Origin: a phage
Length of the DNA stretch: 64,000 bases
Sequence record: PZ674596.1
Direction: 5' to 3' (one strand)
Shown: in pieces, positions 11,564 to 57,303 of the stretch
Layout: every line of letters begins with the position of its first letter
Numbering within the stretch: the stretch's first letter is position 1
The notes under the pieces: generated by a model
Told to the model about the DNA's origin: nothing
Databases searched by the model: none
What the model saw: only the letters and a program-made list of their open reading frames with translations
Made by a program: the position numbers and the translations under genes

Positions 11564-11899
11564 ATGAAGACCATTCCATTCGCGCTGTTGTTTCTTTCTT
11601 CGATCGTTGTGGCCGACACCACTGTTTATCAGTGTGAAATGTCTGTAGCCGACGTTAAGAATGGCGCTCTTACCGACGTCATAAAAGCACCATATGGAGC
11701 GATGGTCGTAGACAGCGGCGACCAGTTCTATGTTGTGCGTGACGATCGAGTGTTGTCATCCCCATATCTCACAAATCGTAATGGCAAATTAACCGGCGTC
11801 GGAGAAGACCACTTCGTATACAACAAATACAAGGGCTTCTATGGCGTTCACGCTTCTCAGCAAAGCTACCTTTTCGATGACTGCAAGGAGGTTGGGTAA
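11564..11899 (+). CDS. secreted hypothetical protein
   Basis: 111 aa; N-terminal signal peptide MKTIPFALLFLSSIVVA. Confidence 0.45.
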   Translation: MKTIPFALLFLSSIVVADTTVYQCEMSVADVKNGALTDVIKAPYGAMVVDSGDQFYVVRDDRVLSSPYLTNRNGKLTGVGEDHFVYNKYKGFYGVHASQQSYLFDDCKEVG

Positions 11900-12111
11900 T
11901 GGCATTAACACTGGCAGGTCTGGAAATCGAGAAAACAAGCGGCTACTGGCGTGCTAAGGGTTTCAAGCAGCCTGGCATTCTTGAGCGTCTGGAACGTGAA
12001 GATGGGTATATCGTCCACCAGCGGCGTGAATGGCGTATGTACGATCCAGAAACAGGAAAACTGACTACAAAAGCCGGAACACTTTGGGGTCTGTTAAAGA
12101 AAATACACTAA
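11899..12111 (+). CDS. hypothetical protein
   Basis: 70 aa; ATG overlaps upstream stop (TAATG). Confidence 0.35.
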   Translation: MALTLAGLEIEKTSGYWRAKGFKQPGILERLEREDGYIVHQRREWRMYDPETGKLTTKAGTLWGLLKKIH

Positions 12112-12158
12112 ATGCAAACTGACTGCGGCACGTTCCGCAGTCATATTTCATAGTCGTC

Positions 12159-12691
12159 ACCGCTGACAGCATACACAATCAACTACCGCTGATAGCATAT
12201 CGAGAGTCTATCTCACCGCTCACAGCATACTTTACTCGATTTTTTACCGCTGACAGCATACTTAAGAAATTGCATGAATAATGTGTCCCGGTATGGGTAT
12301 AACCAGAACAAAATTACCGCTGGCAGCATACGAATGTCTGACATATACCATTAATTACCGCTGATAGCATATCCAAACAAAAATTCCTCAATAAAACACC
12401 GCTGACAGCATACGTTCTATCAGGGAGTAGCAGGCAATAAATGCCTTTCACTACAAGCAATCAGCGCAATAGCAATAGAATGTTAGTGAGCGCAAACCTA
12501 TATGGAATGCACTCTTCGAGGTTAGTAACCACTGGGGAGGTATGACAGAGCATTGAGTGGTGATAGATGATTTACCGCTCACAGCATACGTTCATCTCAC
12601 TATACCGCTGGTAGCATATCTTTAACCGTTCACAGCATACTTTTCAGAAAAATAGCCGCTGATAGCATACATTTCACCGCTGACAGCATAT
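12159..12691. repeat. iteron array: 12 direct copies of 16-bp ACCGCTGACAGCATAC (incA-like, downstream of repA)
   Basis: Copies start near 12159, 12185, 12215, 12246, 12316, 12357, 12398, 12574, 12604, 12625, 12655, 12676; all in one orientation, 1-2 mismatches each. Confidence 0.85.
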
Positions 12692-13785
12692 CAAAGCAGT
12701 TTGAGACTATTGGAAAGGATCTCAATCATCTTGATATTTTCAGGCGTCAAATTCTGCGAAAGTTCGGTTATCTTGTTGATAATGTTCTGTTTGGCATCAA
12801 TTTCCCCAGCTTTCTCATCTGGTTTTTTGGGTTCGATGTCTTCAGGTTTTGGCGGTGCGACTTTGAGTTTTGGATTGCGGCTGTGAATCTGGATATAGAT
12901 CGACCGCCCACGCTTAATCTCGCTGTATTCGAGATAGCCCAAATCTTGGAGAGCTTTTAAGCCGTTACGTATAGTCTGATTCTGCGAGCTGACATTCCTG
13001 CTACTCAAATTGAGTCGCGCACGCAATCGAGCAAGCGATACCGGCGCAGGCTTGGTTGGAAGACTTTCGATGAAGGTGTACAGAGCCTGTGCTGTTTCTT
13101 TGCGTGGTAGCTTATTGATAACCTTTAACTGCAAAAGAACCTTATGGTCAAAGCGATATAGTTCGGCCAGCTTCGGTTCTGCATAGAACACCACCGTATC
13201 TTTCTGCTCGTTGTAGTCCACGCTATTGATGAGGTGCACCATCAGAAGCGAGATCTTGTTAGAGCCGTCGACGTTCTTTTCTTCATACGTTCTCTGGAAA
13301 GACAGAGTTGTACGCATGATCTTCAAAAGACTGTTTGTAAGCCGGTCGCGGAGTGTTTTGCGGATCTGTGACGATGGATAGCCACAAAACTTAGCAAATT
13401 TCGTGATGCTTAACTCGACACGACCGTTAGGTTCGCCGTATTCTGCCAGCGAACGCACAACGCCCACCCACGTTTTGAAATCATGATCCATGTCGAGACG
13501 AGGACCGGTTATCTTGATATCGGAATAGCCTTCAGAACGGGCTACTTCGAGCTGGACAAGCTCCTTTGAAGCATCGATCTCATTTGGCTTGTTACGTTTA
13601 CTGTATTTTGTTCCCTTAAGCGTGGGGACGAACAACCCCAGTCGCATCAACGCAATTGGTTGGACTGTATTGTTGCTATTAGGGACAAGTTCCCCTGTGT
13701 ACAATTCAAGGGAACCTTCTTCAAAGTTGTCGATGTTATCTTCTACTTCTTTGTTATTTTTACCTTTTTTATTTTTTGTGGACAT
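12691..13785 (-). CDS. repA: plasmid replication initiator RepA (P1 RepA / RepFIB-like)
   Basis: 364 aa from ATG 13785 (the table's N-terminal 40 aa is read-through of the iteron region); motifs SNNTVQPIALMRLG, DIKITGPRLDMD, LYTFIESLP, HSRNPKLK match my recollection of P1 RepA; flanked by iterons on both sides. Confidence 0.8.
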   Translation of the reverse strand: MSTKNKKGKNNKEVEDNIDNFEEGSLELYTGELVPNSNNTVQPIALMRLGLFVPTLKGTKYSKRNKPNEIDASKELVQLEVARSEGYSDIKITGPRLDMDHDFKTWVGVVRSLAEYGEPNGRVELSITKFAKFCGYPSSQIRKTLRDRLTNSLLKIMRTTLSFQRTYEEKNVDGSNKISLLMVHLINSVDYNEQKDTVVFYAEPKLAELYRFDHKVLLQLKVINKLPRKETAQALYTFIESLPTKPAPVSLARLRARLNLSSRNVSSQNQTIRNGLKALQDLGYLEYSEIKRGRSIYIQIHSRNPKLKVAPPKPEDIEPKKPDEKAGEIDAKQNIINKITELSQNLTPENIKMIEILSNSLKLL

Positions 13786-13805
13786 GTGGACACCTTTGTC
13801 ATTCA

Positions 13806-13907
13806 ACCGCTGACAGCATACTTGATTTGCCGCTGACAGAATACCAAAAACAGTTGGCAGCATACGGTGAACCGCTGACAGACTATCAATTACCGCTGAC
13901 AGCATAC
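13806..13907. repeat. upstream iterons (4 full + 1 half copy), incC/origin-like
   Basis: Same 16-bp iteron near 13806, 13829, 13871, 13892 plus half-site GGCAGCATAC near 13856. Confidence 0.75.
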
Positions 13908-39405: not shown

Positions 39406-40098
39406 ATGACCAACATTAACTATCAGGCACTGCGTGAAAAGGCAGAAAAAGCAACGTGGGGAGACTGGGACTCATATAAACCACACCGTGGCGCACGTGG
39501 TTATAAGGTCCGACTAAGTGGTCAGGCCATTGCGCAACACGTTCTGAAAAACAACGCTGAATTTATTGCTGCCTTTAATCCAAAGGTTGCTTTGGCATTA
39601 CTGGATGAACTGGAAAGAAACCAGCAATACATCAAACGCCGTGACCAGGAGAACGAGGAAATTGCGCTAACGGTAGGGAGGCTTCGCGTTGAGCTGGAAG
39701 GCAAAGACAGCAAAATAGCCAATCTTACCGCCGAACGCGATGCTCTTCGTGAAGGTGAGATGGGCGACGCTAGGCATAGCAACACACGGGCCGCAGCTGA
39801 TATCTACTTCCAACTGGTCGAGGAGTGCGAAATTCCTGCTGGCGGTTCTCTGGTCGAGTACGTTGACGATATGCGCGAGAAGTTGGAAGCCGCAGAGAAG
39901 CGCATTGCAGAGTTAGAAAGTGGTTCTCAGGCACAAAAGTTAGTTGAAGCAATCATTGTTGCGATAGAAAACGAACAGGAAAGGCTTTTTGATGAAGATT
40001 ACCTAATGGATTCGAAAGAATGCATTGACGTAATTCGTGAAGAAGTAAAGCGATGGAATGATTCCCGTGCCGCTGGCATTCGCATCAAAGGAGAGTGA
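39406..40098 (+). CDS. hypothetical protein (paralogous C-terminal module)
   Basis: 230 aa; NTRAAADIYFQLVEECEIPAGGSLVEYV matches C-terminus of 36218..36922. Confidence 0.5.
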   Translation: MTNINYQALREKAEKATWGDWDSYKPHRGARGYKVRLSGQAIAQHVLKNNAEFIAAFNPKVALALLDELERNQQYIKRRDQENEEIALTVGRLRVELEGKDSKIANLTAERDALREGEMGDARHSNTRAAADIYFQLVEECEIPAGGSLVEYVDDMREKLEAAEKRIAELESGSQAQKLVEAIIVAIENEQERLFDEDYLMDSKECIDVIREEVKRWNDSRAAGIRIKGE

Positions 40099-40099
40099 T

Positions 40100-40363
40100 A
40101 TGGCAACTTTGACAAAAAAAGAACAAGCATGGTTGAGCGAATTACAGGACGTTCTTGATCGCTGCCCATCACCGAAAAAAATTGGTTTTTACACCATTGG
40201 CGATAAAAGCATTTACCTGTATGACCTGCGCCGCATGGATGAAATCATGGAGGCTCTTGATAATCGTTCGTCGATGGATTGGTGTGTTGCTGTCCATGAT
40301 ATGAATGCCGGATTTGATGAAAGGATTTTGTTCCCCTCGTCAGTTGAAAGCACTGCGGGTTAA
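40100..40363 (+). CDS. hypothetical protein
   Basis: 87 aa from ATG 40100 after AAAGGAGAG; table ORF extends into upstream gene. Confidence 0.4.
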   Translation: MATLTKKEQAWLSELQDVLDRCPSPKKIGFYTIGDKSIYLYDLRRMDEIMEALDNRSSMDWCVAVHDMNAGFDERILFPSSVESTAG

Positions 40364-40373
40364 GGAGTAACAC

Positions 40374-41213
40374 ATGACCACTATAACCGATAAGAAACAG
40401 TATCCAGGCGAGCAATATCTTAATGAGCTAATCACCAACATAGAGTTTGCTGCAAGGGCACCAGTTGAAGTCGTGAGAGCGATGGCAGCAGAGCTACAGA
40501 AGCGGCGCGAAGCTGATAGTGCAGAACCTGCAAGTAATCATGAAGAGTTGCCGCTTGATTATCTCCAAGGTCAAAAAGATGGTCTTGAATGGGCTGCGCA
40601 GCTTGCAGAAGCAAATCACCCACAAACTGGCGACTGGCTTTACGATGACCCGCTGGAGCTGGCTAAAGCTATCAGAAAAGGTCCTGACATGCCCGAATTC
40701 GATGGACCAACTCCGGTAACTCCGGATGGTTGGATAAGCTGTAGTGAGCGAATGCCTGTAATTGGCGAGCTAAATTGGAGAACTAGTTTTCCTTTACTGG
40801 TTATGTGTGAGATCGGCGTTATACCTGCTTATTACGGCTTTGTGAGCGTTAATGGTGATAGGCATTATGGCTTTATGGAGAGTCTTAAATACGGAGACGA
40901 TAACGGCAACCATCCTCAAACTAATGAATATGGTCTGATTAGCAATGTCACACACTGGATGCCACTACCAGAACGCCGCAGGAGTCGAACAGTGAATAAA
41001 GCAGAGTTATTTCAGAAAATATCGGCTCTCGCGACTGAATGTCACGCTATAGCATCTGAGCTTGATGTTGGCGGTGAACGAACCGAGATGTTCGAAATAT
41101 ACAGTGTGCTGCGCAATCTCTGTCGGCGTGGCTACGCTACTCAGGTAGGGCGAATGACTAACCCACTACTTTCATTCTGTGATGAGGATGACTCGGATGA
41201 GGATGACGAATGA
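40374..41213 (+). CDS. hypothetical protein with acidic C-terminal tail
   Basis: 279 aa; ends DEDDSDEDDE; central W..C..RMP / THWMPLP segment. Confidence 0.45.
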   Translation: MTTITDKKQYPGEQYLNELITNIEFAARAPVEVVRAMAAELQKRREADSAEPASNHEELPLDYLQGQKDGLEWAAQLAEANHPQTGDWLYDDPLELAKAIRKGPDMPEFDGPTPVTPDGWISCSERMPVIGELNWRTSFPLLVMCEIGVIPAYYGFVSVNGDRHYGFMESLKYGDDNGNHPQTNEYGLISNVTHWMPLPERRRSRTVNKAELFQKISALATECHAIASELDVGGERTEMFEIYSVLRNLCRRGYATQVGRMTNPLLSFCDEDDSDEDDE

Positions 41214-41593
41214 TGCATAAATCAGTAGCCGGTGAGCTTCAGAAGGAAGTCGATAATACCACTGATCTATTGGACGATATTTTAAGCATTCTCGCGCTGC
41301 TTGAGGCTGGTGATTGGTCAGAACATTGCACTAAAACAGAGCTAGGCGGTCGGCTTGAAAGAGAGATTACACGACTGATTAGCGATGCCCAAAATGATTT
41401 GTCACCTGAGCATCTCCCCTGCGATGTAGTTCTTGTGCCAGGGATGAGGATACACGAAGGCGTCAGAACGAAAACATTATTAACCGCATTACAGAGAAGA
41501 GCCGAACTAAGCTCGCGGATAAAGTTGATGCCATCCAAAATATTTGATGTCGTCAAATTTACGCCATCGCAACATACTGAGAGAGATAAATGA
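41210..41593 (+). CDS. hypothetical protein
   Basis: 127 aa; start overlaps upstream stop. Confidence 0.4.
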   Translation: MMHKSVAGELQKEVDNTTDLLDDILSILALLEAGDWSEHCTKTELGGRLEREITRLISDAQNDLSPEHLPCDVVLVPGMRIHEGVRTKTLLTALQRRAELSSRIKLMPSKIFDVVKFTPSQHTERDK

Positions 41594-42405
41594 GCACGGT
41601 AGCGAAAGATCTCACAGAAGATATTCTCAATGAAATTATTGCTGGTGCAAATACCTCGCTTGAGCAACTTCTTGCGTTAGCACTGAGAGCCGAACGTCGA
41701 GACAGAAATCGTTTTTATGAGCGATTACCAGGGAAGCGACCAGATAGATCGGATGAAGAAGGTTGCGATATAGACTACATGGAGCCTTCAGAGATTTATC
41801 AACTTGGTAAAGATGACGGCTGGAACGCTTATCACGATGCTGTGATGAAGTTGGATGAAAAAGTTAAACCTCTTTCTCGACCGGTAGATCACGGTTTCCG
41901 CGATAACTGCGAATGCTCTAGTTGCCAGACCACGGCCCGTATTTGTTCCGAATTGACAGATAAGTCCAGCCTAATCTACGAAGTTAATGTAGGCGGTAAT
42001 ACATGGGTCGAATGCACAAGAGCTGCATACGTAAGAGCAAAAGACAAGGGTGAATTAACCAGAGTTGTTACCCATCACCCAAATAATGAGCTTAAAGATC
42101 ACCAGATTAGAGAACTGGTGAACGAGTTGCGGGATATTGCGGTTACGTATCACGGAACGCAGCAATTGCGGGAGAAAATTGCCAGAGCAGTGAACAACTC
42201 GCTCAAAGGTGGACAATCCCAACCGAAACGTATACGAATTACACATATAGGTGAAAACGGAACAGAAATCCCCCAATTTTCTGTTGGGGACATCTTTGAT
42301 GTACATGGAGAAGAGTTTGGCGAGCCTCACATCACTATGCCTAGTGGCCATGTTTATTGGCTAAGAGCTATGGAGAAATATGGTGATAAATGGGAAGTGT
42401 TATGA
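41590..42405 (+). CDS. hypothetical protein with Cys-rich motif
   Basis: 271 aa; CECSSCQ..C motif; overlaps next gene start. Confidence 0.45.
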   Translation: MSTVAKDLTEDILNEIIAGANTSLEQLLALALRAERRDRNRFYERLPGKRPDRSDEEGCDIDYMEPSEIYQLGKDDGWNAYHDAVMKLDEKVKPLSRPVDHGFRDNCECSSCQTTARICSELTDKSSLIYEVNVGGNTWVECTRAAYVRAKDKGELTRVVTHHPNNELKDHQIRELVNELRDIAVTYHGTQQLREKIARAVNNSLKGGQSQPKRIRITHIGENGTEIPQFSVGDIFDVHGEEFGEPHITMPSGHVYWLRAMEKYGDKWEVL

Positions 42406-42418
42406 GGGATGCGAAGTT

Positions 42419-42943
42419 ATGACTAAATTTGGAAAGCTGGAAGCTCATTTGCTAACTCGTAACTACCGCCATGATGTGCATCCATATAGACAGTGGATCG
42501 ATGAAAGCGAAGGAGTTGTTACATTCCCTCTATACAGGTTTGATGGGATGTTGGCCGGGTATCAGACATACAGACCAGGCGCTCCTAAGCAGCATAGCAA
42601 TCCGAAGATGGCCCGGTATTTCACACGAGCGCACGGCAGACAGCTACTATGGGGAACCTATCTTCCTTTAAAAGATGGACCGATATGGATAACTGAGTCG
42701 ATTTTTAAAAGTGCAGCAGTGCACAACGCGGGCGGAAATTCGTGGGCGCTGTTAGGTTCGACTTTCTCAGCAGGATTACGTCGTCAACTGGCAATGCTGC
42801 CGTATGACTTTCGCGTAATAGGTGACAATGATGCGGCTGGTGAATCACTTGTGAAGTCTTTCGGAAAAGGTTTTGTGGCCCCGGATCTTGACGAGCTACA
42901 ACCAAATGAAGTGTCTCATTTGATTTTTAGCCATAGCCAATAA
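42419..42943 (+). CDS. Toprim-like domain protein (tentative)
   Basis: 174 aa from ATG 42419; acidic motifs ITESIF and GDNDAAGE spaced like Toprim E and DxD. Confidence 0.4.
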   Translation: MTKFGKLEAHLLTRNYRHDVHPYRQWIDESEGVVTFPLYRFDGMLAGYQTYRPGAPKQHSNPKMARYFTRAHGRQLLWGTYLPLKDGPIWITESIFKSAAVHNAGGNSWALLGSTFSAGLRRQLAMLPYDFRVIGDNDAAGESLVKSFGKGFVAPDLDELQPNEVSHLIFSHSQ

Positions 42944-42959
42944 GCATCCCTTCTCCATT

Positions 42960-43022
42960 AAGGCCACTAGTTGTGGCCTTAAACAATTTGTTTTCTACCT
43001 TTTCTTGTTCGAGAAAATAACG
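42960..43022 (+). promoter_or_regulatory. conserved terminator-promoter cassette
   Basis: AAGGCCACTAGTTGTGGCCTT followed by AAACAATTTGTTTTCTACCTTTTCTTGTTCGAGAAAATAAC. Confidence 0.55.
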
Positions 43023-43079
43023 TTCATTTGTCTGGTGCTATGTACCGATCAGTTGCACTGAGTGAGCTTCTTTCATGTA

Positions 43080-43099
43080 TACTGTATAAATGAACAGTA
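43080..43099 (+). promoter_or_regulatory. LexA (SOS) box upstream of humD-like gene
   Basis: TACTGTATAAATGAACAGTA fits CTGT-N8-ACAG; 17 nt upstream of ATG 43116. Confidence 0.7.
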
Positions 43100-43115
43100 T
43101 TGAGGGCAAAACGCT

Positions 43116-43505
43116 ATGGGCTTCCCTTCTCCTGCGGCGGATTATGCTGAGAGCCGTATTTCTCTTGATCAGCAGATAATTAGACATCCTTCAGCGACCT
43201 ACTTCATGAGAGCGGCTGACAGCCATCATCGTGAGGGAATATTGCAGGGCGCATTGCTGGTGGTCGATTCCTCACTTACCCCGGTTGATGGTTCTCTGCT
43301 TGTATGCGCTCTGGATGGGGAATATCGCGTAAAAAGATACCGGAAGTATCCACGTCAGCATCTGGAGGATTTAAGAACTGGTAAGAAGGAAGCATTGCCA
43401 AAGGATGACGATGGATGCACGGGCAGCAATGCCGTGTTTGGTGTGATCACTCACATTATCAACGACGCAAGAAGTGGCGAGTTTGATGATTGTCCCGTGA
43501 TGTAG
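43116..43505 (+). CDS. humD: UmuD'-like protein lacking the N-terminal arm (HumD-like)
   Basis: 129 aa beginning MGFPSPAADY, i.e. at the UmuD Cys24-Gly25 processing site; Ser and Lys of the catalytic dyad alignable (ADSH; VKR); P1 HumD has the same form. Confidence 0.75.
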   Translation: MGFPSPAADYAESRISLDQQIIRHPSATYFMRAADSHHREGILQGALLVVDSSLTPVDGSLLVCALDGEYRVKRYRKYPRQHLEDLRTGKKEALPKDDDGCTGSNAVFGVITHIINDARSGEFDDCPVM

Positions 43506-43516
43506 GAGAACTGATT

Positions 43517-43542
43517 AGGCGGTGCATTGCACCGCCTTTTTA
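43517..43542 (+). terminator. Rho-independent terminator between convergent humD and mrp
   Basis: AGGCGGTGCA-tt-GCACCGCCT followed by TTTTT. Confidence 0.7.
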
Positions 43543-44643
43543 TCACACTGCGCGGAATGCGATTTCGCCAGGTATTACTTCACCTTGCCAATACATTTGG
43601 GCAGCAACGCGATCTGCGAGGTCACGATAAATAGCTGTAAATTCGCTATCTGGACGACTAATAACGGTTGGTGTTCCGTTATCCAGATCTTCACGAAGAG
43701 AGATATGAAGTGGCATTTGGCCTAACAACTGCGTGTTGTATTTCTCGGCCAGTTTCTGTGCGCCACCGGTGCCAAAAATTGGCTCGTGATGACCGCAGTT
43801 ACTGCAAATATGCACACTCATGTTTTCAACGATACCCAGTACCGGCACTTCGACTTTTTCGAACATCACAATGCCTTTCTTCGCATCGATCAGCGCGATG
43901 TCTTGCGGCGTAGTTACCACAACCGCACCAGTTACAGGAATGTTCTGCGCCAGCGTCAACTGAATATCACCAGTGCCCGGCGGCATATCGAGAACAAGAT
44001 AGTCCAGATCAGGCCACAATGTTTCCTGCAACATCTGCATTAACGCCTTGCTCGCCATCGGTCCACGCCACACCATTGCATTGTCGTCGGTGACCAGATA
44101 ACCAATAGAGTTGGTTGCCAGGCCATGAGACATGATAGGTGCCATGTGAGTACCGTCAGGTGAGGTTGGACGTTGGTTTTCCGCGCCCAGCATGGTTGGA
44201 ATTGATGGACCATAGATATCGGCATCCAAAATACCAACTTTCGCACCTTCAGCAGCCAACGCCAGTGCCAGGTTTACCGCCGTGGAGGATTTACCCACGC
44301 CGCCCTTGCCTGAGCTGACGGCGATAATGTTCTTAACGCCATTAATGCCTGGTTGGTTTTTGACGCGCTTAAGCGTGGCAATGTTGTACGACAGCTTCCA
44401 GTCAATAGCCTTTGCGCCAGTGATACGGAGCAGATCACCACTACATTGCTCTTTCAGGTCTTCAAAAGGCTTATTCCACACGAAAGGCATGATTAGTTCG
44501 ACATGCAGTGTGTCATCCATCAACGCAACATGGTGTAACGCTTTAAGCGTAGTCAGGTTGTGTTTCAGGGTTGGGTGCTGAAAATTAGCCAGCGTACCGG
44601 CTACCATTGCTCTCAGGGCATCCGGCGATTTGGACTCGCTCAT
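43543..44643 (-). CDS. mrp: Fe-S cluster carrier ATPase Mrp/ApbC (host-type)
   Basis: 366 aa; deviant Walker A SGKGGVGKSS; matches my recollection of enterobacterial Mrp. Confidence 0.9.
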   Translation of the reverse strand: MSESKSPDALRAMVAGTLANFQHPTLKHNLTTLKALHHVALMDDTLHVELIMPFVWNKPFEDLKEQCSGDLLRITGAKAIDWKLSYNIATLKRVKNQPGINGVKNIIAVSSGKGGVGKSSTAVNLALALAAEGAKVGILDADIYGPSIPTMLGAENQRPTSPDGTHMAPIMSHGLATNSIGYLVTDDNAMVWRGPMASKALMQMLQETLWPDLDYLVLDMPPGTGDIQLTLAQNIPVTGAVVVTTPQDIALIDAKKGIVMFEKVEVPVLGIVENMSVHICSNCGHHEPIFGTGGAQKLAEKYNTQLLGQMPLHISLREDLDNGTPTVISRPDSEFTAIYRDLADRVAAQMYWQGEVIPGEIAFRAV

Positions 44644-44800
44644 CCCGTCTCCTTTATTTTAATTTGCGCAATTGTCGCCTTGTAGTGTACTCCAGCTACG
44701 ACATTTAATCATTTATGAGAAATGCTGTTATCACATGGCAGACATAAGGCCATTTTGTTACTATCAAGCCCCTTTTCACTACAAAGAAGTAATGCCTACT

Positions 44801-46834
44801 ATGACCCAAGTCGCGAAGAAAATTCTGGTGACGTGCGCGCTGCCGTACGCTAACGGCTCAATCCACCTCGGCCATATGCTGGAGCACATCCAGGCTGATG
44901 TCTGGGTTCGTTACCAGCGAATGCGCGGCCACGAGGTTAATTTCATCTGTGCCGACGATGCCCACGGTACGCCGATCATGTTGAAAGCACAGCAGCTTGG
45001 TATCACACCGGAGCAGATGATTGGCGAAATGAGTCAGGAACATCAGACTGATTTCGCAGGCTTTAACATCAGCTATGACAACTATCACTCGACGCACAGC
45101 GAAGAGAACCGTCAGTTGTCCGAGCTTATCTATACTCGCCTGAAAGAGAACGGTTTTATTAAAAACCGCACCATCTCTCAGCTGTACGACCCGGAAAAAG
45201 GCATGTTCCTGCCGGACCGTTTTGTAAAAGGCACATGCCCGAAATGTAAAGCGCCGGATCAATACGGCGATAACTGTGAAGTCTGCGGCGCTACTTACAG
45301 CCCGACTGAACTGATCGAGCCGAAATCGGTAGTTTCTGGTGCTACGCCGGTAATGCGTGATTCCGAACACTTCTTCTTTGATCTGCCTTCTTTCAGCGAA
45401 ATGTTGCAGGCATGGACCCGCAGCGGTGCGTTGCAGGAGCAGGTGGCAAACAAAATGCAGGAGTGGTTTGAATCTGGCCTGCAACAGTGGGATATCTCCC
45501 GCGATGCGCCGTACTTCGGTTTTGAAATTCCGAACGCACCGGGCAAATATTTCTACGTCTGGCTGGACGCGCCGATTGGCTACATGGGTTCCTTCAAGAA
45601 TCTGTGCGACAAACGCGGCGACACTACCAGCTTCGACGAATACTGGAAGAAAGACTCCACCGCCGAGCTGTACCACTTCATCGGTAAAGATATCGTTTAC
45701 TTCCACAGCCTGTTCTGGCCTGCCATGCTGGAAGGCAGCAACTTCCGCAAGCCGACCAACCTGTTTGTTCACGGCTATGTGACGGTGAACGGCGCGAAGA
45801 TGTCCAAGTCTCGCGGCACCTTTATTAAAGCCAGCACCTGGCTGAATCATTTTGACGCCGACAGCCTGCGTTACTACTACACTGCGAAACTCTCTTCGCG
45901 CATTGATGATATCGATCTCAATCTGGAAGATTTCGTTCAGCGTGTGAATGCCGATATCGTTAACAAAGTGGTTAACCTGGCCTCCCGTAATGCAGGCTTT
46001 ATCAACAAGCGTTTTGACGGCGTGCTGGCAAGCGAACTGGCTGACCCGCAACTGTACAAAACCTTTACTGATGCCGCTGAAGTGATTGGCGAAGCATGGG
46101 AAAGCCGCGAATTTGGCAAAGCTATCCGTGAAATCATGGCACTGGCTGACCTGGCTAACCGCTATGTTGATGAACAGGCTCCGTGGGTGGTGGCGAAGCA
46201 GGAAGGACGCGATGCCGATCTGCAGGCGATTTGCTCTATGGGCATTAACCTGTTCCGCGTGCTGATGACGTACCTGAAACCGGTACTGCCGAAACTGACT
46301 GAACGTGCAGAAGCATTCCTGAATACAGAACTGACCTGGGATGGTATCCAGCAACCGCTGCTGGGCCATAAAGTGAATCCGTTCAAGGCACTGTATAACC
46401 GTATCGATATGAAACAGGTGGAAGCACTGGTGGAAGCATCCAAAGAAGAAGTGAAAGCCACAGCTGCACCGGTAACTGGCCCACTGGCTGACGACCCGAT
46501 TCAGGAAACCATCACCTTTGACGACTTCGCCAAAGTTGACCTGCGTGTGGCGCTGATTGAAAACGCGGAGTTTGTCGAAGGTTCTGACAAACTGCTTCGC
46601 CTGACGCTGGATCTCGGTGGTGAAAAGCGTAATGTCTTCTCAGGCATCCGTTCCGCTTATCCAGATCCACAGGCACTGATTGGTCGTCACACCATTATGG
46701 TGGCTAACCTGGCACCACGTAAAATGCGCTTCGGTATCTCTGAAGGCATGGTGATGGCTGCTGGCCCCGGCGGGAAAGATATCTTCCTGTTAAGCCCGGA
46801 TGCTGGTGCTAAACCTGGCCACCAGGTTAAGTAA
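44801..46834 (+). CDS. metG: methionyl-tRNA synthetase (host-type)
   Basis: 677 aa from ATG 44801 (table ORF has spurious 43-aa extension); [16 protein letters not shown], Zn knuckle CPKCK..CEVCG; near-identical to enterobacterial MetG as I recall it. Confidence 0.95.
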
Positions 46835-46856
46835 TTAAACAACCTCTCTTCGCAAT

Positions 46857-46880
46857 GCCCGGCAACACGCCGGGCATTTT
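46857..46880 (+). terminator. Rho-independent terminator after metG
   Basis: GCCCGGC-aacac-GCCGGGC followed by ATTTT. Confidence 0.7.
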
Positions 46881-46995
46881 CATATAGACACAATCCCTCC
46901 TGATTTACACAAGCCCTAAAACAATTTGTTTTCTACCTTTTGTTGATTGAGATAATAAGCCACATAAGAAAACAACTTGTTTTGGAGTAGTTGAA

Positions 46996-47295
46996 ATGTT
47001 GAACATTACCCAAGCCTACCAGGTGGCATTGATCAGTTCATCTCATACATCAGAGGAAGATGCTCGCCGATTCATGATCGCAAGCAATGAGCTGGATTGG
47101 GTTTCACAAATTGATGGCGGTTGTATTGTTCACGCCGGGTTACAGGATGATGTCTGGAAAGACGACTTGCGTCGATATGGTATATCCGAAGGCGCGATTG
47201 CTAACATTCAGAAAGTACTTGATGTAGGCTTTGACTCTGTACATTTTGATTGTGGAGCACCAGTCGTTGAAGGGCTTGAGTGCTGGAACTGGTAA
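46996..47295 (+). CDS. hypothetical protein
   Basis: 99 aa; preceded by AAAACAACTTGTTTT palindrome and GGAG. Confidence 0.45.
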   Translation: MLNITQAYQVALISSSHTSEEDARRFMIASNELDWVSQIDGGCIVHAGLQDDVWKDDLRRYGISEGAIANIQKVLDVGFDSVHFDCGAPVVEGLECWNW

Positions 47296-47340
47296 CAGAT
47301 ATTAAAGCATTGGTAGTTTGTTTTTAGGATTATCAAAGAA

Positions 47341-48075
47341 ATGAAAAAGTTGAAAAGTTTAGAAATCCCTGGGACTGGTTATAAATTCTTTATGGACAAC
47401 GCGGAGTGTGCGCCTAACGCGTTGGAAAAAATACAAAGTCTTATCAACAGCCTTACTGAAGAAGCGAAAGAACTGAAGAGCGAGGCGACAAAGGACAATA
47501 CAGCTAAAATCCAATGCTTAAATCTCGTTTCTTATTGTTTATATCAAGTGTCCAAAACACTGATTAAAGGCAATATCTATTACGACGATGAAGACACCTC
47601 GACACCTGAAGAAAAAGATAGCGATGAAGAACTCTATGAAGATATCTCTACCAGTGCGGGTCACGCTGCCTTCGATGCTATGGGTGAATCGTCAGGCATC
47701 AGATCGTTTGTTGAACAGAACAATTCGACAATAATGATTGAGTACTGTGAACAAACAAGCTCCAAGGCCATACATGTTCTTCACGATGTTGCTGCAGGGG
47801 TTCGCTGTGAGGCTGAAGCGGTCAGAAAAGATGTATTTGGTGCAGACAGTAATACCGTGAAAGCGTTCATCAACAGTGCTCTGCTAAATTCTTACTCAAA
47901 CCTTATCGTCAATGCGGCACTATGCGCAAATTCAGGTGAAGAACACATTGTCATAACTGAAACCAAACATGAGCATCAACAGTCACCAACCATAGAAGAG
48001 GTAACTGCATTGGCTATCAAACAGGCGAGTGAAATTAGTGATGAAATTCTCTCTCTGCTAAACAAAACTATGTAA
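47341..48075 (+). CDS. hypothetical protein
   Basis: 244 aa; acidic central region. Confidence 0.5.
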   Translation: MKKLKSLEIPGTGYKFFMDNAECAPNALEKIQSLINSLTEEAKELKSEATKDNTAKIQCLNLVSYCLYQVSKTLIKGNIYYDDEDTSTPEEKDSDEELYEDISTSAGHAAFDAMGESSGIRSFVEQNNSTIMIEYCEQTSSKAIHVLHDVAAGVRCEAEAVRKDVFGADSNTVKAFINSALLNSYSNLIVNAALCANSGEEHIVITETKHEHQQSPTIEEVTALAIKQASEISDEILSLLNKTM

Positions 48076-48189
48076 AACATTGATAATGGCGGTCAAAATT
48101 TGATTCTTTTCTATAAGAATCCGTTGATCGCCACTACTCCCCTTCCATACCTGCAATCATACCCTTAAATATCAATAGGTTATGGTTGT

Positions 48190-48935
48190 TTATACAAATA
48201 AGAAAACAACTAAATAACAGATCAACGAAACGTCAACGCTTTCACCCGATTTGGTCTAAAAAATTGACGTTTTCACACATCACTTCTTATACCCGTAACT
48301 CTACGCAGCAGACAGCGCCACAGCGTCCAATTTTCACCACAGACGACCCAACACACTACCAACAAAAACACACGCTCAAAATCGCTCCCGTTGCGTTACA
48401 CAACCATATAAACAACTTATTTTCAGGCATAACAAAACAACTAAATAACACACATGCCATTCCCAAAAACAACCAACCTCTTTATGGCAGGCTACCGAAA
48501 AGACCCACCTCTTCTCCCCAGGCTACCGGACAACCAACCTAACTTTCACAGGCAATCCGAAAACATTCATACGCGCGATACCCACGACACGCCATTCCCC
48601 AAACAGCGAAGAAACACCAGAATCACTGAAACCCCAACGAAGCCTGTAACCGCAAGGATTCTCTCAATCCCAAAAGACACGAAACAGAACAATCACGGGA
48701 AACGCCATTACCCAATACACGAATAACTACAAAAGCCTTTCACACACTCCAGACAAACAACTCAAACACAATAACGAAAGGAATCGCCCACCTGCCATTA
48801 CTCCATACACGGAGAAGAACAATCACCAAAACGACGAGAACACCCCATAGAAGAACCACCGCAAAACGAACGAAACCACATACACCGACAGAGAAAACAG
48901 CACACCCAATTCACCAACAGAAATAGTCGCCGTAT
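48190..48935 (+). repeat. G-depleted A/C-rich low-complexity tract with dispersed direct repeats
   Basis: ~750 bp with almost no G on plus strand; 17-mer AAAACAACTAAATAACA twice (near 48199 and 48434); GCCATT(C/A)C(C/T)C-type repeats near 48456, 48591, 48704, 48794. Confidence 0.7.
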
Positions 48936-49127
48936 AGAACATTCTGGAAGGAGTGAGCATTAACGCCTATAGAGAGGTTGAGACAGATAAAACACAACAT
49001 GTATAGCGAAGAAGCCAGGTATGTATAAGTGGGGAGGGAAGGAGGGGTGTCGCCTCCTTTTTCGTATTTATTCAACTCCTGATTTTATCCCCCGTAACAC
49101 CCCTACGGTCAGCCTTCGGTCCATACA

Positions 49128-49266
49128 GGGAAAAGGCTGCATCCCGCTACAGAAACGGCTGGGTTGCCTTCGGGGAACGGCTGGGGATTTTCAGGGAAAC
49201 GGTCGAGTTGCCTGTGTGGATTTCGGGAAAAGGCTCGATGCCGGTTCAGGAACGGTGGCGTACCGG
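49128..49266 (+). repeat. tandem imperfect repeats RGGAAAMGGCT (6 copies, ~21-31 bp period)
   Basis: GGGAAAAGGCTGCATCCCGC, AGAAACGGCTGGG, GGGGAACGGCTGGGG, AGGGAAACGGTCGAG, GGGAAAAGGCTCGATGCCGG, AGGAACGGTGGCG; related 20-mers at 52353-52395. Confidence 0.7.
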
Positions 49267-49616
49267 TATAGCGAGAGGGAGAGTTGCGGCTACCCACCTG
49301 TAATGTGCGGGAAGAAGAGAGGCGCTCACGTAGGCGGACTTGCTTACCGCTGGATTCCCTCTGAATGCCCAGCTACAGCGTAATTGTGCCAGACAGCCAA
49401 CGGGTCACAATCGATTTCAGTAGGTTTTTGGGGAGAGGATTACTCTGCCACCAGCCACTTTCGGCCACTAAATCAGAATAATGTAAAAAGTGTACTCGGT
49501 ACTGAACCTGAAAACTCACTGCCAAAACCACATTCACCGGAATAAAATCCTTTTTCGCCTGTGCGTTATTGCGATAATAACACCATCAAGAAAACATGTT
49601 GTTTAAGGATTGCTTT

Positions 49617-49946
49617 ATGTTTACAAACATCGACATCAACCAAATCAAGAAATTAACTCAAAAAGAGTTTGATCAGTTTTATGAGTTAGAAGGTTGGTCT
49701 TCCACTCTGATCAATTCAAGATGGGTGCTGGAACTGATGACTCGTGATGACGCACCTGCTTTGATGATTTGCGACATGGGTGAAGATGCTGACTTTATGG
49801 ATATGAGCGAATTTTGTGTGGACACATACAACCGCAGCCAGAAGTACTACTTCACATGCGATAGCGAGAATGACGTTATTTCTAAGGTCTATCTTCACCT
49901 TGTCCAGCATTGGGACGTTCAGGAGTTTCTTGAAGTATTCGAGTAA
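49617..49946 (+). CDS. hypothetical protein
   Basis: 109 aa from ATG 49617 after AAGGA; table start 49596 lies in the promoter palindrome. Confidence 0.4.
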   Translation: MFTNIDINQIKKLTQKEFDQFYELEGWSSTLINSRWVLELMTRDDAPALMICDMGEDADFMDMSEFCVDTYNRSQKYYFTCDSENDVISKVYLHLVQHWDVQEFLEVFE

Positions 49947-50099
49947 CCCCAACCAAAGCCAGCATTGCTGGCTTAATTTCTCTATAGCCGCAGGGAAGAA
50001 CCTGCATATCGCTCATGCACCTGATCAATATGCTTTGTAGCCGTTTTCTTACTGGTATTATTTACGCCATTGAGAAAACAAGTTGTTTACGGAGTTGTA

Positions 50100-50411
50100 A
50101 TGAAAAAATCATTGGTTCTTGGTCTGGACAAAGACCAGAAGAGAAAAGAGAAGCCTGCGCTGGTTGCTCAATTAACTTTGCTGGACATCGTTGCCAATGG
50201 AACCTCTATTCGTCTGTTCCGTGAAACAGCGGTGTCTTTCGATAAAAACACCTTTACTCGTTATGTAATGAATGTTCGTCGCCAGCGTGGAAAAGGCTGG
50301 GTGGCATTTCAAAGAATGTGGCCGGAACATCAGCTCGAACTGGCTTTGATGGAAGTTAACCGCGTGGCCCAGCAAGAGATTCAGAGAGCATCAGTGATGG
50401 CAATAGCCTGA
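50100..50411 (+). CDS. hypothetical protein
   Basis: 103 aa from ATG 50100 after ACGGAG. Confidence 0.45.
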   Translation: MKKSLVLGLDKDQKRKEKPALVAQLTLLDIVANGTSIRLFRETAVSFDKNTFTRYVMNVRRQRGKGWVAFQRMWPEHQLELALMEVNRVAQQEIQRASVMAIA

Positions 50412-50446
50412 TAATGTGCAAGTGGCAATTAGTCGACAGTACGACA

Positions 50447-50473
50447 GCCCCGCCATCCTTACGGGGCTTTTTT
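50447..50473 (+). terminator. Rho-independent terminator
   Basis: GCCCCG-ccatccttac-GGGGC followed by TTTTTT. Confidence 0.65.
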
Positions 50474-50537
50474 GTATTGTAAGTACATACTTACGATCAT
50501 AGAATATAAAAATAATCAAAACACTACGGAGAGTGAA

Positions 50538-50933
50538 ATGACCGTTAAACGCGAAAAACTGACAGTTGATGTTTACTATGCCTCTGAAACCGCCGAAGGT
50601 AAGAATGTGGCAAAAATCACCGTTGTTACGTACAACACCGAAACTGGTGCCGAAGTACAGGCCAGTACGATCGTGCGTAAAGGTGATGCCTCCGGCGGCG
50701 AGTACGCGACTCAATACCAGTCCATTCTCGATGCAACTGACCCGCTGCTGCTGAAAATCGAGAACTACTTCCGCCAGGTTGATGAAGAGGTGTTTGAAAC
50801 CATGATGAATATGGTTAACACCGTATTCGCCTCCAGCCTGAATACCAACACTACCTGGATTGGTCAGTACGGCCTGCGCATTACCTCTGGCATTCCTGCC
50901 GACACCTTAATCCCTGAAAGCGTATTCGCTTAA
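50538..50933 (+). CDS. hypothetical protein
   Basis: 131 aa from ATG 50538 after GGAGAG. Confidence 0.5.
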   Translation: MTVKREKLTVDVYYASETAEGKNVAKITVVTYNTETGAEVQASTIVRKGDASGGEYATQYQSILDATDPLLLKIENYFRQVDEEVFETMMNMVNTVFASSLNTNTTWIGQYGLRITSGIPADTLIPESVFA

Positions 50934-50942
50934 TCCTCTTTA

Positions 50943-50970
50943 AATGGCGCGTAAACCGCGCCATTTTATT
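50943..50970 (+). terminator. Rho-independent terminator
   Basis: AATGGCGCG-taaac-CGCGCCATT followed by TTATT. Confidence 0.65.
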
Positions 50971-51050
50971 AAGCCCGATAACAATTTGTTTTCTGCCTTA
51001 TCTGATTTGTGAAAATGATTTCACTGAAGCAAGTTAATAAGGAAACCATC

Positions 51051-51425
51051 ATGGGACTTGATATCTATATCGAGACACAGCCTAAAAACGATCTGAATAA
51101 CGAGGCATCCAGAAAGCAGGTTGCTTACTTCCGTAAGTTCAATGCGCTCGTTGGGTGGATGGAGCGCAACGTAGGTGAAGTCGAAAATTGTGAGCTTTTA
51201 GAATTAACGATGAATGACATTTGTTTTCTGAAGGCTCATTTGATGCACATAAACGAAAGTAATTGCGAAGAGTACTTGCCTACCCGGGAAGGTTTTTTCT
51301 TCGGCAGTCAGGAGTACGATGAAGGTTACTGGCATGATGTGGGGCAGTTGAAAGAGCTTGTGGAAGATCTGATTAAGAACCACGACTTTCACAATAACAG
51401 ACTGACCTTCTGCGCCTGGTGGTAA
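51051..51425 (+). CDS. hypothetical protein
   Basis: 124 aa from ATG 51051 after AAGGAAACC. Confidence 0.45.
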   Translation: MGLDIYIETQPKNDLNNEASRKQVAYFRKFNALVGWMERNVGEVENCELLELTMNDICFLKAHLMHINESNCEEYLPTREGFFFGSQEYDEGYWHDVGQLKELVEDLIKNHDFHNNRLTFCAWW

Positions 51426-51775
51426 ATATGGGCGATTTCAAGAAACGCCTGAAGGAAAGAGCCGAGATGGTCAGAAAGCAAAACGCCTCTTCTGTCATCA
51501 GATACGCAAGGCAGTTTAGTCGCAACAACAAATCAGTTGAGGAAAAGATCCTTAGCGTAATCGTGCGATAATTATTAAGGCCACCAGCATTGGTGGTCTT
51601 AAATGACCATCCTGTTTCCCTCAGGCTAATAACACCAACCTCTTACCTCCAGGCAACCGACAAACCCACCTGTTCCCGTCCGGCTACCGCAACTTTCCAC
51701 TTTGACGCCTTATTCGTACAACGATAATTAACGCCAACAAGAAAACAATTTGTTATTTACGATAAGGAATTAATC

Positions 51776-52258
51776 ATGAATTTTATCGCTACTGTAAACG
51801 CACCCGCACATGGCAATATCGCTGTAACGTTCTCTGACATTGAAAAACGAGTACTTGGTGCATGGCGCGACAATGAGACGGTAGAACTGTCAGCACAAGA
51901 AAAATGCATTATTGCACGCGACATCATTGGCAATCGTCGTTACTCGAGGGTATTTGAGAAAGCATATGTGGTAAATTCTGGATTCGGAACGTTCGTCTTT
52001 CCGGTGCGCTCCGGGCGATTCTGCCAGTCCAAGCTGATTGAGTTCGCTACGCAGATTTCTTTCTGGATTAAAACTCAATCGTCGTTCAAATTTTCCGACG
52101 ATGAAGCAGTATCGCAGGGGATGCGGATCGCCAACAATGCGATTAAATGCAAAAACATTACGTATACCGCTGGCGTTGATACATGGAAACTGTTTTGCGC
52201 TAACTTTATGCTGAATGTATACGCAAGCAACCGCATCCACATCCTTGATGGCGTGTAA
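51776..52258 (+). CDS. hypothetical protein
   Basis: 160 aa; ATG after AAGGAATTAATC. Confidence 0.5.
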   Translation: MNFIATVNAPAHGNIAVTFSDIEKRVLGAWRDNETVELSAQEKCIIARDIIGNRRYSRVFEKAYVVNSGFGTFVFPVRSGRFCQSKLIEFATQISFWIKTQSSFKFSDDEAVSQGMRIANNAIKCKNITYTAGVDTWKLFCANFMLNVYASNRIHILDGV

Positions 52259-54322: not shown

Positions 54323-54619
54323 TTATCGGACTGATTCTACAGCCTTACGATTGGTGTCAAATAACGCATCAACGAACTGCACAGAAGAGTTGTTCGATTC
54401 ACATGGTTCATAATTTTCCACTTGTTCACATAGTTGAGCGGTCTTACCAATGTTTATCCCTAATTTTACAGCTGCTGAAAGTTTAAACATGCAAACTGGT
54501 ACATTCTGAGACGTTGAGCATACGTCATTCATCAGCGACTGAATAATTGCGATATCATCCTTTGCATTGGCCGAAATTGAGTAAACTAAAAATAAAGATG
54601 TCAATAGTATCGATTTCAT
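54323..54619 (-). CDS. small secreted Cys-rich protein
   Basis: 98 aa; signal peptide MKSILLTSLFLVYSISANA; six Cys in mature part. Confidence 0.5.
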   Translation of the reverse strand: MKSILLTSLFLVYSISANAKDDIAIIQSLMNDVCSTSQNVPVCMFKLSAAVKLGINIGKTAQLCEQVENYEPCESNNSSVQFVDALFDTNRKAVESVR

Positions 54620-56169: not shown

Positions 56170-57303
56170 TTAATTGGCGTTTTCGTTCTTCTCTTTTTTG
56201 CTAATTTCATCACATGCAAGGTTCATTATGTCTATGTTTTCTTGTTTTTGAAGGTTGCCGACAATTTTTTGGCGCAATTCATAAAATCGCTCGCGTGGTA
56301 TAGCTTCCTTGTTGCCGCTGATGTGAAGTATTGCGTGACAGCTAGGGCAGACGGCAATCAGATCTGTTTTTGGGTTCACGCTTCGTGCACCTTCGCCTTG
56401 TGAAAGTGGGATGATGTGGTGAGCGTGTAGCAGCGTTTTCGTTTCTTTACCGTCAATTTCCTTGCCGTATATTTCCGACATCGTTCTGCAACATAGTTGA
56501 CACCTGTAGTCTGCGTTTGCCAGAACGTCATTCCTTAACCCGGATACGCGGCTACGATGTTGCGACTGGATTAATCTTGTTTCGCCCTCTATATATTCCT
56601 CAACTTCTTCTTTCTGGAGGTCGTAGCTGATTTCTTCTTGAGTTACGTTGTCTTCTGCTTTGGCTGAGACTGCATGAATCTCTTTCTTATTCAACGAGAA
56701 AGGTGATTTGAGAGCATCAGCACTGTTTTGCCCTCTTGAATGTTGTGATTTTAGAGCAAGATTGTAAATCTCTTTTAATTTGACATTTTTTTTGTTTGTT
56801 CTAAAGAACTTTCTGCTCTCTACTTGTGAGATAATCCCTGATTCTATATATTGAATTAACACACGAAGAAAATGTTCTATAGATTTTTTACTTTTGAATG
56901 AAAAGGAATAGCCGACTTTCTTTCTCAACTCGTTTTCGCTAAAGAACTCTTTCAGATTTTCGTCGTCAGTCAGGTTAATGGTTGCACCTGCCCAGGTTGA
57001 AGCTTCTACAATTTCAGGAATAACCTCTTGGTCGCCAAGCTGATTGTTTATTTCATCCAGCATTTTAAAGACTGTCAATATTGGATACGGATTCGTCACC
57101 AGACCGTTAGAGGATTTCGTTCTAGGCCCATTCTTTTTTATAATGATGGGGTGCTGTTGAGAAGTTTTCTTTAATTGTAAATAATAAAGGTTTATATTAT
57201 TATTCGTTGATATACCTGCCGGTTTTATCAAGGATAATTTTTCATCACATGCAATATCATCTATTATATTTCTTAGGTCACACGTTTTTATAAATTGACG
57301 CAT
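56170..57303 (-). CDS. HNH-nuclease-domain protein with unknown N-terminal domain
   Basis: 377 aa; C-terminal CQLCC...HAHHIIPLS...CPSCH HNH signature; low GC; RBS GGAGGA lies in a CCTCCGAA/TTCGGAGG hairpin. Confidence 0.6.
   Translation of the reverse strand: MRQFIKTCDLRNIIDDIACDEKLSLIKPAGISTNNNINLYYLQLKKTSQQHPIIIKKNGPRTKSSNGLVTNPYPILTVFKMLDEINNQLGDQEVIPEIVEASTWAGATINLTDDENLKEFFSENELRKKVGYSFSFKSKKSIEHFLRVLIQYIESGIISQVESRKFFRTNKKNVKLKEIYNLALKSQHSRGQNSADALKSPFSLNKKEIHAVSAKAEDNVTQEEISYDLQKEEVEEYIEGETRLIQSQHRSRVSGLRNDVLANADYRCQLCCRTMSEIYGKEIDGKETKTLLHAHHIIPLSQGEGARSVNPKTDLIAVCPSCHAILHISGNKEAIPRERFYELRQKIVGNLQKQENIDIMNLACDEISKKEKNENAN

Follow-up and report, generated by a model that had tools for sequence, protein, structure and literature searches.

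Why should an element that is at once phage and plasmid carry genes for a methionyl-tRNA synthetase (MetRS) and an iron-sulphur (Fe-S) cluster carrier when its host has its own? The question is posed by a 64,000 nt stretch of phage DNA (sequence record PZ674596.1; the whole stretch is referred to here as the window), in which the block from 43543 to 46834 comprises apbC, also named mrp, and metG. A first-pass annotation, made from the sequence alone, described these as host-type genes embedded between phage-type operons, and suggested either a recent capture from the host or a chimeric assembly. The comparisons described here point elsewhere: the block is probably the long-resident, selectively maintained humD-apbC-metG cargo of the Escherichia/Shigella branch of SSU5-type phage-plasmids (P-Ps), represented by pECOH89, pLF82 (the same element as phage Cyrano) and pWPMR2, in which it would act through gene dosage as an autonomous 'moron'.

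Giant viruses and jumbo phages bring their own aminoacyl-tRNA synthetases to infection, and plasmid-borne second synthetases that confer resistance are a known kind. Like the viral enzymes and the isoleucyl-tRNA synthetases (IleRS) encoded by mupA and mupB, the MetG of the P-P is an extra aminoacyl-tRNA synthetase on a mobile element; whereas those are highly diverged from the host enzyme, however, it is a near-copy (98.8% identity) accompanied by its native neighbour, apbC. That a MetRS would be unusual on such an element was rightly anticipated, as full-length enterobacterial genomes encoding one are limited, in a set of 50,697 phage records, to four of this P-P lineage (Cyrano, two CMS-2020a records and PhiR41_1). 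The other enterobacterial match was a 5-kb Salmonella fragment, probably of chromosomal DNA, and metG is also borne by megaphages and one jumbo cyanophage. The apbC-metG feature is itself already known, being annotated in RefSeq and in phage records, and a functional study of metG exists.

Two intact housekeeping genes

Both genes are complete and lie in their native divergent order, as first described, with full-length products arranged as on the Escherichia coli chromosome, where the gene order is yehE-apbC-metG-DUF4132 gene. MetG scores 1019.8 bits against the NCBIfam equivalog model NF001100 (cut-off 587), residues 4-677 aligning to positions 3-676 of the 676 in the profile; the catalytic motifs HLGH (residue 22) and KMSKS (residue 333) are present, and the Pfam domains tRNA-synt_1g, Anticodon_3 and tRNA_bind each exceed their cut-offs. 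Alignment to the E. coli gene places the metG start at the ATG at 44801, in place of the TTG at 44672 given in the mechanical list of open reading frames. ApbC scores 759.3 bits against the equivalog model NF008669 (cut-off 348), falls below the cut-off of the MinD models (57.2 bits against 212.9), and keeps both the deviant Walker A motif GKGGVGKS at residue 112 and the CxxC ligand motif CSNC at residue 280. The identical protein in Cyrano, CYRAN_99, is named 'Septum site-determining protein MinD' in that record, although it too is scored as ApbC by NCBIfam. Judged by these profiles and motifs, MetG and ApbC are predicted to be catalytically intact enzymes, and methionylation is supported indirectly by the purifying selection described below.

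To the left of the pair, humD matches the NCBIfam HumD equivalog at 219.8 bits (cut-off 120) and has approximately 86% nucleotide identity to the humD genes of P1 and P7. The LexA-box-like TACTGTATAAATGAACAGTA upstream suggests that humD is probably SOS-regulated; in the records of P1 and P7 the humD match coincides with an annotated LexA feature, and in Cyrano the box at the same site differs (TACTGTATGTGTATACAGTA).

The block lies within a phage-plasmid

The whole window is collinear with P-Ps of around 110 kb, such as pERB3f3, and P-P DNA flanks the block on both sides, in agreement with the initial view that it sits inside the element rather than at its edge. Upstream of the block, pERB3f3-type plasmids carry RepB, dnaE, nrdAB, thyA, folA and rnhA, with ParB-like, terminase, portal and capsid genes on the downstream side, and the gene complement also includes a ligase; in the window RepB lies at approximately 12690-13904, accompanied by ParB-like genes, and the terminase, portal and capsid genes begin just beyond the window end in the collinear pERB3f3. 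Kinship with SSU5 is evident from shared synteny, a DUF5983 homologue with 43% amino acid identity and the same operator palindrome. The source of the window therefore appears, from its gene content, to be a P-P of the SSU5 supergroup, with replication and partition genes and packaging and structural genes on one replicon. That the window might instead be chromosomal, with its phage-like genes belonging to two separate elements, is contradicted by the collinearity with the pERB3f3-type plasmids. The flanking P-P DNA occurs 230 times in 5,426 complete E. coli genomes and is chromosomal in none of these cases.

Relatives of this element have been characterised. Cyrano, which matches SSU5 at 81% identity and 65% coverage, forms virions; each cell holds approximately 5.5 copies of it, and ciprofloxacin induces it 39-fold (PMC9928086). 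PhiR41_1 was deposited as a phage with K-12 as its host, and pWPMR2 has been assigned to SSU5 clade K (bioRxiv 10.1101/2025.09.12.675607).

Distribution of the module

The block is found at ≥ 95% identity in 188 PLSDB plasmids from E. coli, Shigella, E. albertii and E. fergusonii, and the 4.4 kb around it is matched over at least 80% of its length by 180. The humD-apbC-metG-DUF5983 module, which shows 95-99% identity in the PLSDB plasmids, is constant in the Escherichia/Shigella branch, while the genes on either side are variable: Cyrano and pECOH89 share it at 96-98% identity, but have other genes than the window beyond humD on the left and beyond the DUF5983 gene on the right. The pWPMR2-type plasmids of Shigella sonnei belong to the same type of element (Escherichia/Shigella clades J/K of the SSU5 supergroup), have the same gene and show no essential difference from the window, the block being approximately 98% identical and the ApbC protein the same; the work of Tam et al. 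on these plasmids, as relayed in PMC12452169, concerns metG. An index of assembly blocks lists the exact ApbC protein in over 12,000 of them, mostly contigs of 50-200 kb.

Whether the host also has a chromosomal metG, a check proposed at the outset, can be answered directly. All 5,426 complete E. coli genomes have one, with approximately 90% identity to the window, and the P-P allele (≥ 95% identity) occurs in 215 records among them, or around 4%, at 224 plasmid places altogether; it is always plasmid-borne, and always present alongside an intact chromosomal metG.

More distant members of the family indicate where the module was acquired. SSU5, pHCM2 and the SSU5-like P-Ps of Klebsiella have the same backbone, the same operator palindrome and the same synteny from the DUF4942 gene to the DUF5983 gene, yet are without humD, apbC and metG at that position. 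In SSU5 and Klebsiella pJN2-26, the DUF5983 homologues serve as the syntenic anchor (43-46% amino acid identity in SSU5 and the Klebsiella P-Ps), and the absence of the module from this site in both implies that it was gained in the Escherichia/Shigella branch and that it is dispensable for the phage cycle. When the left and right flanks were joined and compared with PLSDB, no record was found with the flanks adjacent; the site comparison was consequently made with these more distant relatives.

Two exceptional arrangements were seen among plasmids. One E. coli P-P has a transposase within the apbC-metG block (NZ_CP075739.1, 86682-91272), and a 257-kb Klebsiella pneumoniae plasmid has an apbC-metG pair with 82.6% identity (NZ_OP378650.1, 43401-46692); this pair may have been captured independently, or may be chromosomal DNA assigned in error.

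Selection on the genes and their expression signals

Nine P-P alleles, all intact, were used to assess selection. In apbC, 67 codons vary synonymously and one varies in its amino acid, giving a ratio of nonsynonymous to synonymous diversity (piN/piS) of 0.006; in metG the corresponding counts are 213 and 14, and the ratio is 0.017. The ratios for humD and the adjacent DUF5983 gene are 0.04 and 0.18 respectively, such that apbC is the most constrained gene of the module. Synonymous divergence within the P-P lineage is approximately 10-17% (piS 0.09-0.17), and a single ApbC protein (WP_000004356.1) is common to plasmids from E. coli, E. albertii and S. sonnei despite differences in their DNA.

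The non-coding parts of the module are similarly conserved. Over the same nine alleles the divergent promoter region varies at two of its 157 nt, as against 17% of third codon positions in apbC and 31% in metG. The metG terminator, comprising hairpin and U-run, has a predicted folding energy of -19.1 kcal/mol (z -5.3); in the E. albertii plasmid allele its stem shows a compensatory change, CCCGGC/GCCGGG being replaced by CCCAGC/GCTGGG, and two other alleles have G-U intermediates. In three alleles the hairpin shared by humD and apbC (-18.6 and -17.5 kcal/mol) likewise has a compensatory pair, C>T at 43520 being matched by G>A at 43534. The suggestion that each gene has its own terminator consequently stands for metG but not for apbC, which shares its hairpin with humD, the U-tract being present on the humD strand only. 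Taken together, the strong purifying selection and the conserved signals imply that both the proteins and their expression signals are maintained on the P-P, and this speaks against the block being a passenger or a fragment in decay.

On either side of the block lie motifs of the element itself. The 19-mer AAACAATTTGTTTTCTACC has an exact copy on each side (Table 1), and six matches when up to three mismatches are allowed, against an expectation of 0.02, bearing out the early observation that the same motifs recur on both sides. The palindrome AAAACAAnTTGTTTT has 22 strand matches, representing around 11 sites, between 22000 and 63330, where 0.4 would be expected; it is present in all ten of the P-P loci compared, including SSU5 and the Klebsiella relative, and in none of 81 chromosomal loci, and this restriction to P-Ps marks it as a family-wide regulatory motif. 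In the right boundary cassette, which is a putative promoter, an exact palindrome, AAAACAACTTGTTTT, directly precedes the next ribosome-binding site. The near-palindrome TAATTTGCGCAATTG in the intergenic region is repeated no more often than chance would allow, and no meaningful repeats were found. A tRNA gene search of the window found none, nor was any Rfam family found in 40000-52000.

A proposed role in the lysogen

The history that would best accommodate these results begins with an ancestor of the branch capturing an enterobacterial apbC-metG pair, trimmed nearly to the coding regions and the metG-proximal promoter. This would have been inserted into the variable early or accessory region, between two copies of the operator-promoter cassette, where the near-invariant divergent promoter and the hairpin terminators would make it an autonomous transcription unit, or moron. 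Were it expressed while the element replicates as a plasmid of around five copies, the lysogen would gain a second, multi-copy source of MetRS and ApbC atop the chromosomal genes. Expression of the P-P metG could then produce an antibiotic-tolerant or persistent sub-population, through dosage rather than an altered enzyme, because the MetRS differs from that of E. coli by only eight conservative substitutions, none of them near the HIGH and KMSKS motifs. That dosage is the mechanism, and that the element benefits, is our inference.

Published observations fit parts of this scheme. In the Cyrano lysogen the apbC homologue CYRAN_99 is expressed nine-fold over background, as one of 13 genes above background (PMC9928086). 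According to a summary of the work of Tam et al. (2024, medRxiv 10.1101/2024.10.27.24316207, via PMC12452169), P-P-borne metG of variable copy number is associated with multidrug-resistant (MDR) S. sonnei, and metG expression generates a tolerant or persistent sub-population and predisposes to third-generation cephalosporin resistance.

Other observations weigh against a long-resident moron acting through dosage. The tolerance phenotype comes from that second-hand summary of Tam et al. (PMC12452169), and metG itself (CYRAN_100) is not among the genes expressed at ≥ 5-fold in the Cyrano lysogen (PMC9928086). In a consensus scan the intergenic region gave no strong sigma-70 hit. Nor was an obvious Fe-S client enzyme, such as might account for the extreme constraint on apbC, seen among the element's genes. 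Finally, the module lies among early-region genes, a position compatible with a role in lytic growth.

That last point leads to the alternative that survives best, in which the MetRS, with ApbC, is an auxiliary of the lytic cycle that sustains translation initiation and enzyme maturation. This is compatible with the proposed role in the lysogen, but is rather unlikely. The element is self-sufficient in outlook, with dnaE, nrdAB, thyA, folA, rnhA, a ligase and, in Cyrano, three tRNA genes (for Asn, Thr and Ser; Met is absent); the module falls in a plus-strand early region bracketed by operator/promoter cassettes, and the metG genes of megaphages and the jumbo cyanophage offer a precedent. The metG of the P-P, however, has a host-type promoter and its own terminator, outside any phage operon, while expression of the apbC homologue is seen in the lysogen without induction (PMC9928086). 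Furthermore, SSU5 and its Klebsiella relatives complete their cycle without the module, and a phenotype of the host while it carries the element has been reported, as summarised in PMC12452169.

A more elaborate possibility, and a doubtful one, is that ApbC and MetRS together form a P-P-controlled switch, perhaps with an AtaT-like toxin, that sets the fraction of cells in a translation-arrested, tolerant state. Room for such a switch is left by the distinct histories of the two genes, apbC being from an unsampled source and metG patched from hosts, by the constraint on apbC and by the nearly invariant 110 nt segment of the intergenic region.

Toxins of this type also bear on the idea of an inhibitor-resistant or decoy synthetase, comparable to the plasmid-borne mupA or to the second MetRS of Gram-positive bacteria: AtaT acts on aminoacyl-tRNA, and many of the same P-Ps encode an AtaT-like GNAT toxin. 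Such a function is nevertheless very improbable for an enzyme with 98.8% identity to the sensitive one, its eight conservative changes lying away from HIGH/KMSKS; it is a standard MetG equivalog that scores 33 bits against the MupA and MupB models, for which the cut-off is 1900, and apbC would be left unexplained. The AtaT/AtaR-like toxin-antitoxin pair is encoded outside the window, corresponding to CYRAN_26/27 of Cyrano; its solved relatives include 6gts and 6ajm (269 bits) and KacT (253 bits), and it is found in 145 PLSDB plasmids, mostly Escherichia P-Ps of 106-114 kb that also have metG.

Exchange between plasmid and chromosomal metG

The block might alternatively serve as portable homology, a recombination target for integration or exchange at the chromosomal metG. 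There is evidence of exchange. Over nucleotides ~500-1600 the metG of pECOH89 scarcely differs from the E. coli chromosomal allele, and shorter patches of chromosomal type occur in two other P-P contigs (window-equivalent 45133-45628 and 46051-46630), these mosaic alleles implying gene conversion between plasmid and chromosomal copies. In addition, six public draft E. coli contigs join P-P and chromosome inside metG, in both of the reciprocal configurations expected of a single crossover: humD-apbC(P-P)-metG followed by the chromosomal DUF4132 genes, and yeh fimbrial genes-apbC(chromosomal)-metG followed by the DUF5983 gene of the P-P.

All six joins, however, switch within the window-equivalent interval 45,695-45,993, in which the two versions of metG differ at four of 299 nt. 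As none of the 230 occurrences of the flanking P-P DNA in complete genomes is chromosomal, the draft joins are most likely to be assembler mis-joins, although some may represent rare cointegrates; stable cointegrates were not seen, and chromosomal integration through metG, at which the draft contigs had hinted, was rejected as a candidate on the same count. Nor does a homology arm need intact proteins, yet both genes are under extreme purifying selection, and the 17% divergence of apbC is too high for efficient recombination. There is accordingly little to recommend portable homology as the purpose of the block.

Age and origin of the pair

Recent capture from the chromosome of the present host, as initially suggested, can hardly be sustained. 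In its favour, the gene order and the metG-proximal promoter are of the type found on Enterobacteriaceae chromosomes, and metG is nested among those of Escherichia species; the E. coli mrp(apbC)-metG locus has the same genes in the same divergent orientation, with the same metG-proximal promoter/leader. The apbC gene, however, has 82.6% nucleotide and 94.5% amino acid identity to that of the E. coli chromosome, with a synonymous divergence (dS) of approximately 1.4, and metG has 94.1% and 98.8% respectively, with dS of approximately 0.29. Homology to the chromosome is limited to the two coding regions and some 47 nt of the metG promoter/leader, and neither the 110 nt at 44644-44753 nor the P-P terminators had a match in 80 chromosomal loci. 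Compared with the E. coli locus, the ApbC of the P-P has an N-terminus shorter by three codons, the intergenic region of 157 nt exceeds the chromosomal 131 nt by 26 nt, and the neighbouring genes and terminators are different, that of metG being unrelated to its chromosomal counterpart. Moreover, the P-P alleles form a clade of their own, with piS of 0.09-0.17, and the module is present in the plasmids of four host species. A donor scan with ApbC as the query, covering one genome for each of 100,044 species, did not identify a source, the best matches having 94-95% amino acid identity and apbC nucleotide identity of ≤ 83.6%.

The two genes appear to have distinct histories. In trees, apbC of the P-Ps falls on a long branch that is sister to the genus Escherichia in its entirety, whereas their metG lies among Escherichia species. 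At third codon positions the apbC of the P-P differs from that of E. coli by 45%, a distance like that of Citrobacter (43% between E. coli and Citrobacter; 29% between E. coli and E. albertii), while for metG the figure is 16%, as against 18% from E. coli to E. albertii and 32% from E. coli to Citrobacter. Faster evolution of apbC on the plasmid was considered as a cause of the long branch and ruled out, as piS within P-Ps is lower for apbC (0.094) than for metG (0.169). The simplest reading of these patterns would be an old capture from an unsampled lineage, after which metG was homogenised by recombination with host chromosomes.

An assembly chimera, in which chromosomal apbC-metG reads were stitched into a P-P contig, has a negligible claim even at a locus prone to such errors, as the six draft contigs attest, given that the block has P-P DNA on both flanks and P-P-type alleles of both genes over their full length, is 99% identical to pERB3f3 and 6-17% divergent from every E. 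coli chromosome, and has the same architecture in some 190 independently assembled complete plasmids and four phage genomes; among the 230 occurrences of the flanking P-P DNA in complete E. coli genomes, moreover, none is chromosomal.

Other features of the window

The features of the module and its boundaries are listed in Table 1.

Table 1. Positions in the window of the genes and putative signals of the module and its boundary cassettes.
Feature	Position	Strand	Details
Left boundary cassette	42958-42999	plus	terminator-like hairpin 42958-42982, overlapping AAACAATTTGTTTTCTACC copy 1 (42981-42999)
LexA (SOS) box TACTGTATAAATGAACAGTA	43080-43099	plus	17 nt upstream of humD; CTG-N10-CAG fit, consensus only
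humD, P1-type UmuD'-like translesion polymerase subunit	43116-43505	plus	129 aa; left member of conserved module
humD/apbC shared hairpin	43517-43537	both	rho-independent for humD (U-run 43538-43542); no U-tract in the apbC direction
apbC/mrp, Fe-S cluster carrier ATPase, intact	43543-44643	minus	366 aa; NCBIfam, Pfam and motifs
Divergent promoter/leader region	44644-44800		157 nt; 44754-44800 conserved in Enterobacteriaceae, 44644-44753 P-P-specific
metG, methionyl-tRNA synthetase, intact, with C-terminal tRNA-binding domain	44801-46834	plus	677 aa; NCBIfam, Pfam and motifs
metG terminator	46854-46885	plus	hairpin 46854-46878; 10-bp stem, 5-nt loop, UUUUCAU
Right boundary cassette	46919-46983	plus	AAACAATTTGTTTTCTACC copy 2 (46919-46937), extended -10-like TGAGATAAT, palindrome AAAACAACTTGTTTT (46969-46983)
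DUF5983 gene	46996-47295	plus	99 aa; right member of module; Pfam DUF5983 42.8 bits

Elsewhere in the window, the many other host-type genes of replication and nucleotide metabolism in 1-24700 (dnaE, nrdA, nrdB, thyA, an SbcCD-like pair and CobT/CobS-like genes) have only 60-80% identity to SSU5-type plasmids of Klebsiella, Yersinia and Salmonella, which indicates an ancient backbone, unlike the lineage-specific apbC-metG pair. At approximately 36300, the 3-kb ISEcp1-blaCTX-M-15 insertion of pERB3f3 is absent (the alignment jumps from 10820 to 13870 in the pERB3f3 locus), such that there is no extended-spectrum β-lactamase gene in the window; pECOH89, with its mosaic metG containing chromosomal sequence, differs from the window in having blaCTX-M-15.

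The region 48100-49560 comprises around 1.45 kb in which close relatives have no annotated gene; its conservation with pERB3f3 is 99%, and no Rfam family matches it. Between 48200 and 48910 the plus strand is extremely rich in C and A and poor in G (GC skew -0.35, AT skew +0.35), and there follows a G-rich structured stretch in which, near 49037-49060, lies the terminator-like GGAGGGGTGTCGCCTCC-TTTTT. A long CA-rich non-coding RNA and a replication origin are candidate identities for the region.

Further to the right, a 173 aa product encoded on the minus strand at 54623-55144 matches the Pfam family 'Repressor of phase-1 flagellin' (FljA-like) at 274.9 bits, and the P-P may therefore alter host flagellin expression. 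A neighbouring candidate, a T4 Vs-like modifier of the valyl-tRNA synthetase (ValRS) for which related loci have a weak Pfam label, was set aside, the homologue in the window (54323-54619) having no Pfam hit. The segment 55138-58106, of GC content 0.36-0.40, does not align to pERB3f3 and encodes, on the minus strand at 56170-57303, an HNH-domain protein of 377 aa; the segment has the look of variable cargo and may be related to defence.

Implications

With the pair itself already on record, what these comparisons add is that the module is old and composite in origin, that apbC is more strictly constrained than metG, that the expression signals are themselves under selection and that metG probably gives rise to an assembly artefact. 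For the pWPMR2-type plasmids of S. sonnei, they bring in the accompanying apbC, the provenance of the block and the selection that acts on it. The sequence shared between the two versions of metG probably leads to mis-joins of P-P and chromosome in public drafts, which is relevant wherever copies of metG are counted in surveillance. Around 4% of complete E. coli genomes carry a second, multi-copy metG and, according to the literature, so does a large share of epidemic MDR S. sonnei. Antibiotic tolerance, with which the gene has been linked, can be a forerunner of resistance, and metG is not flagged by screens for resistance genes.

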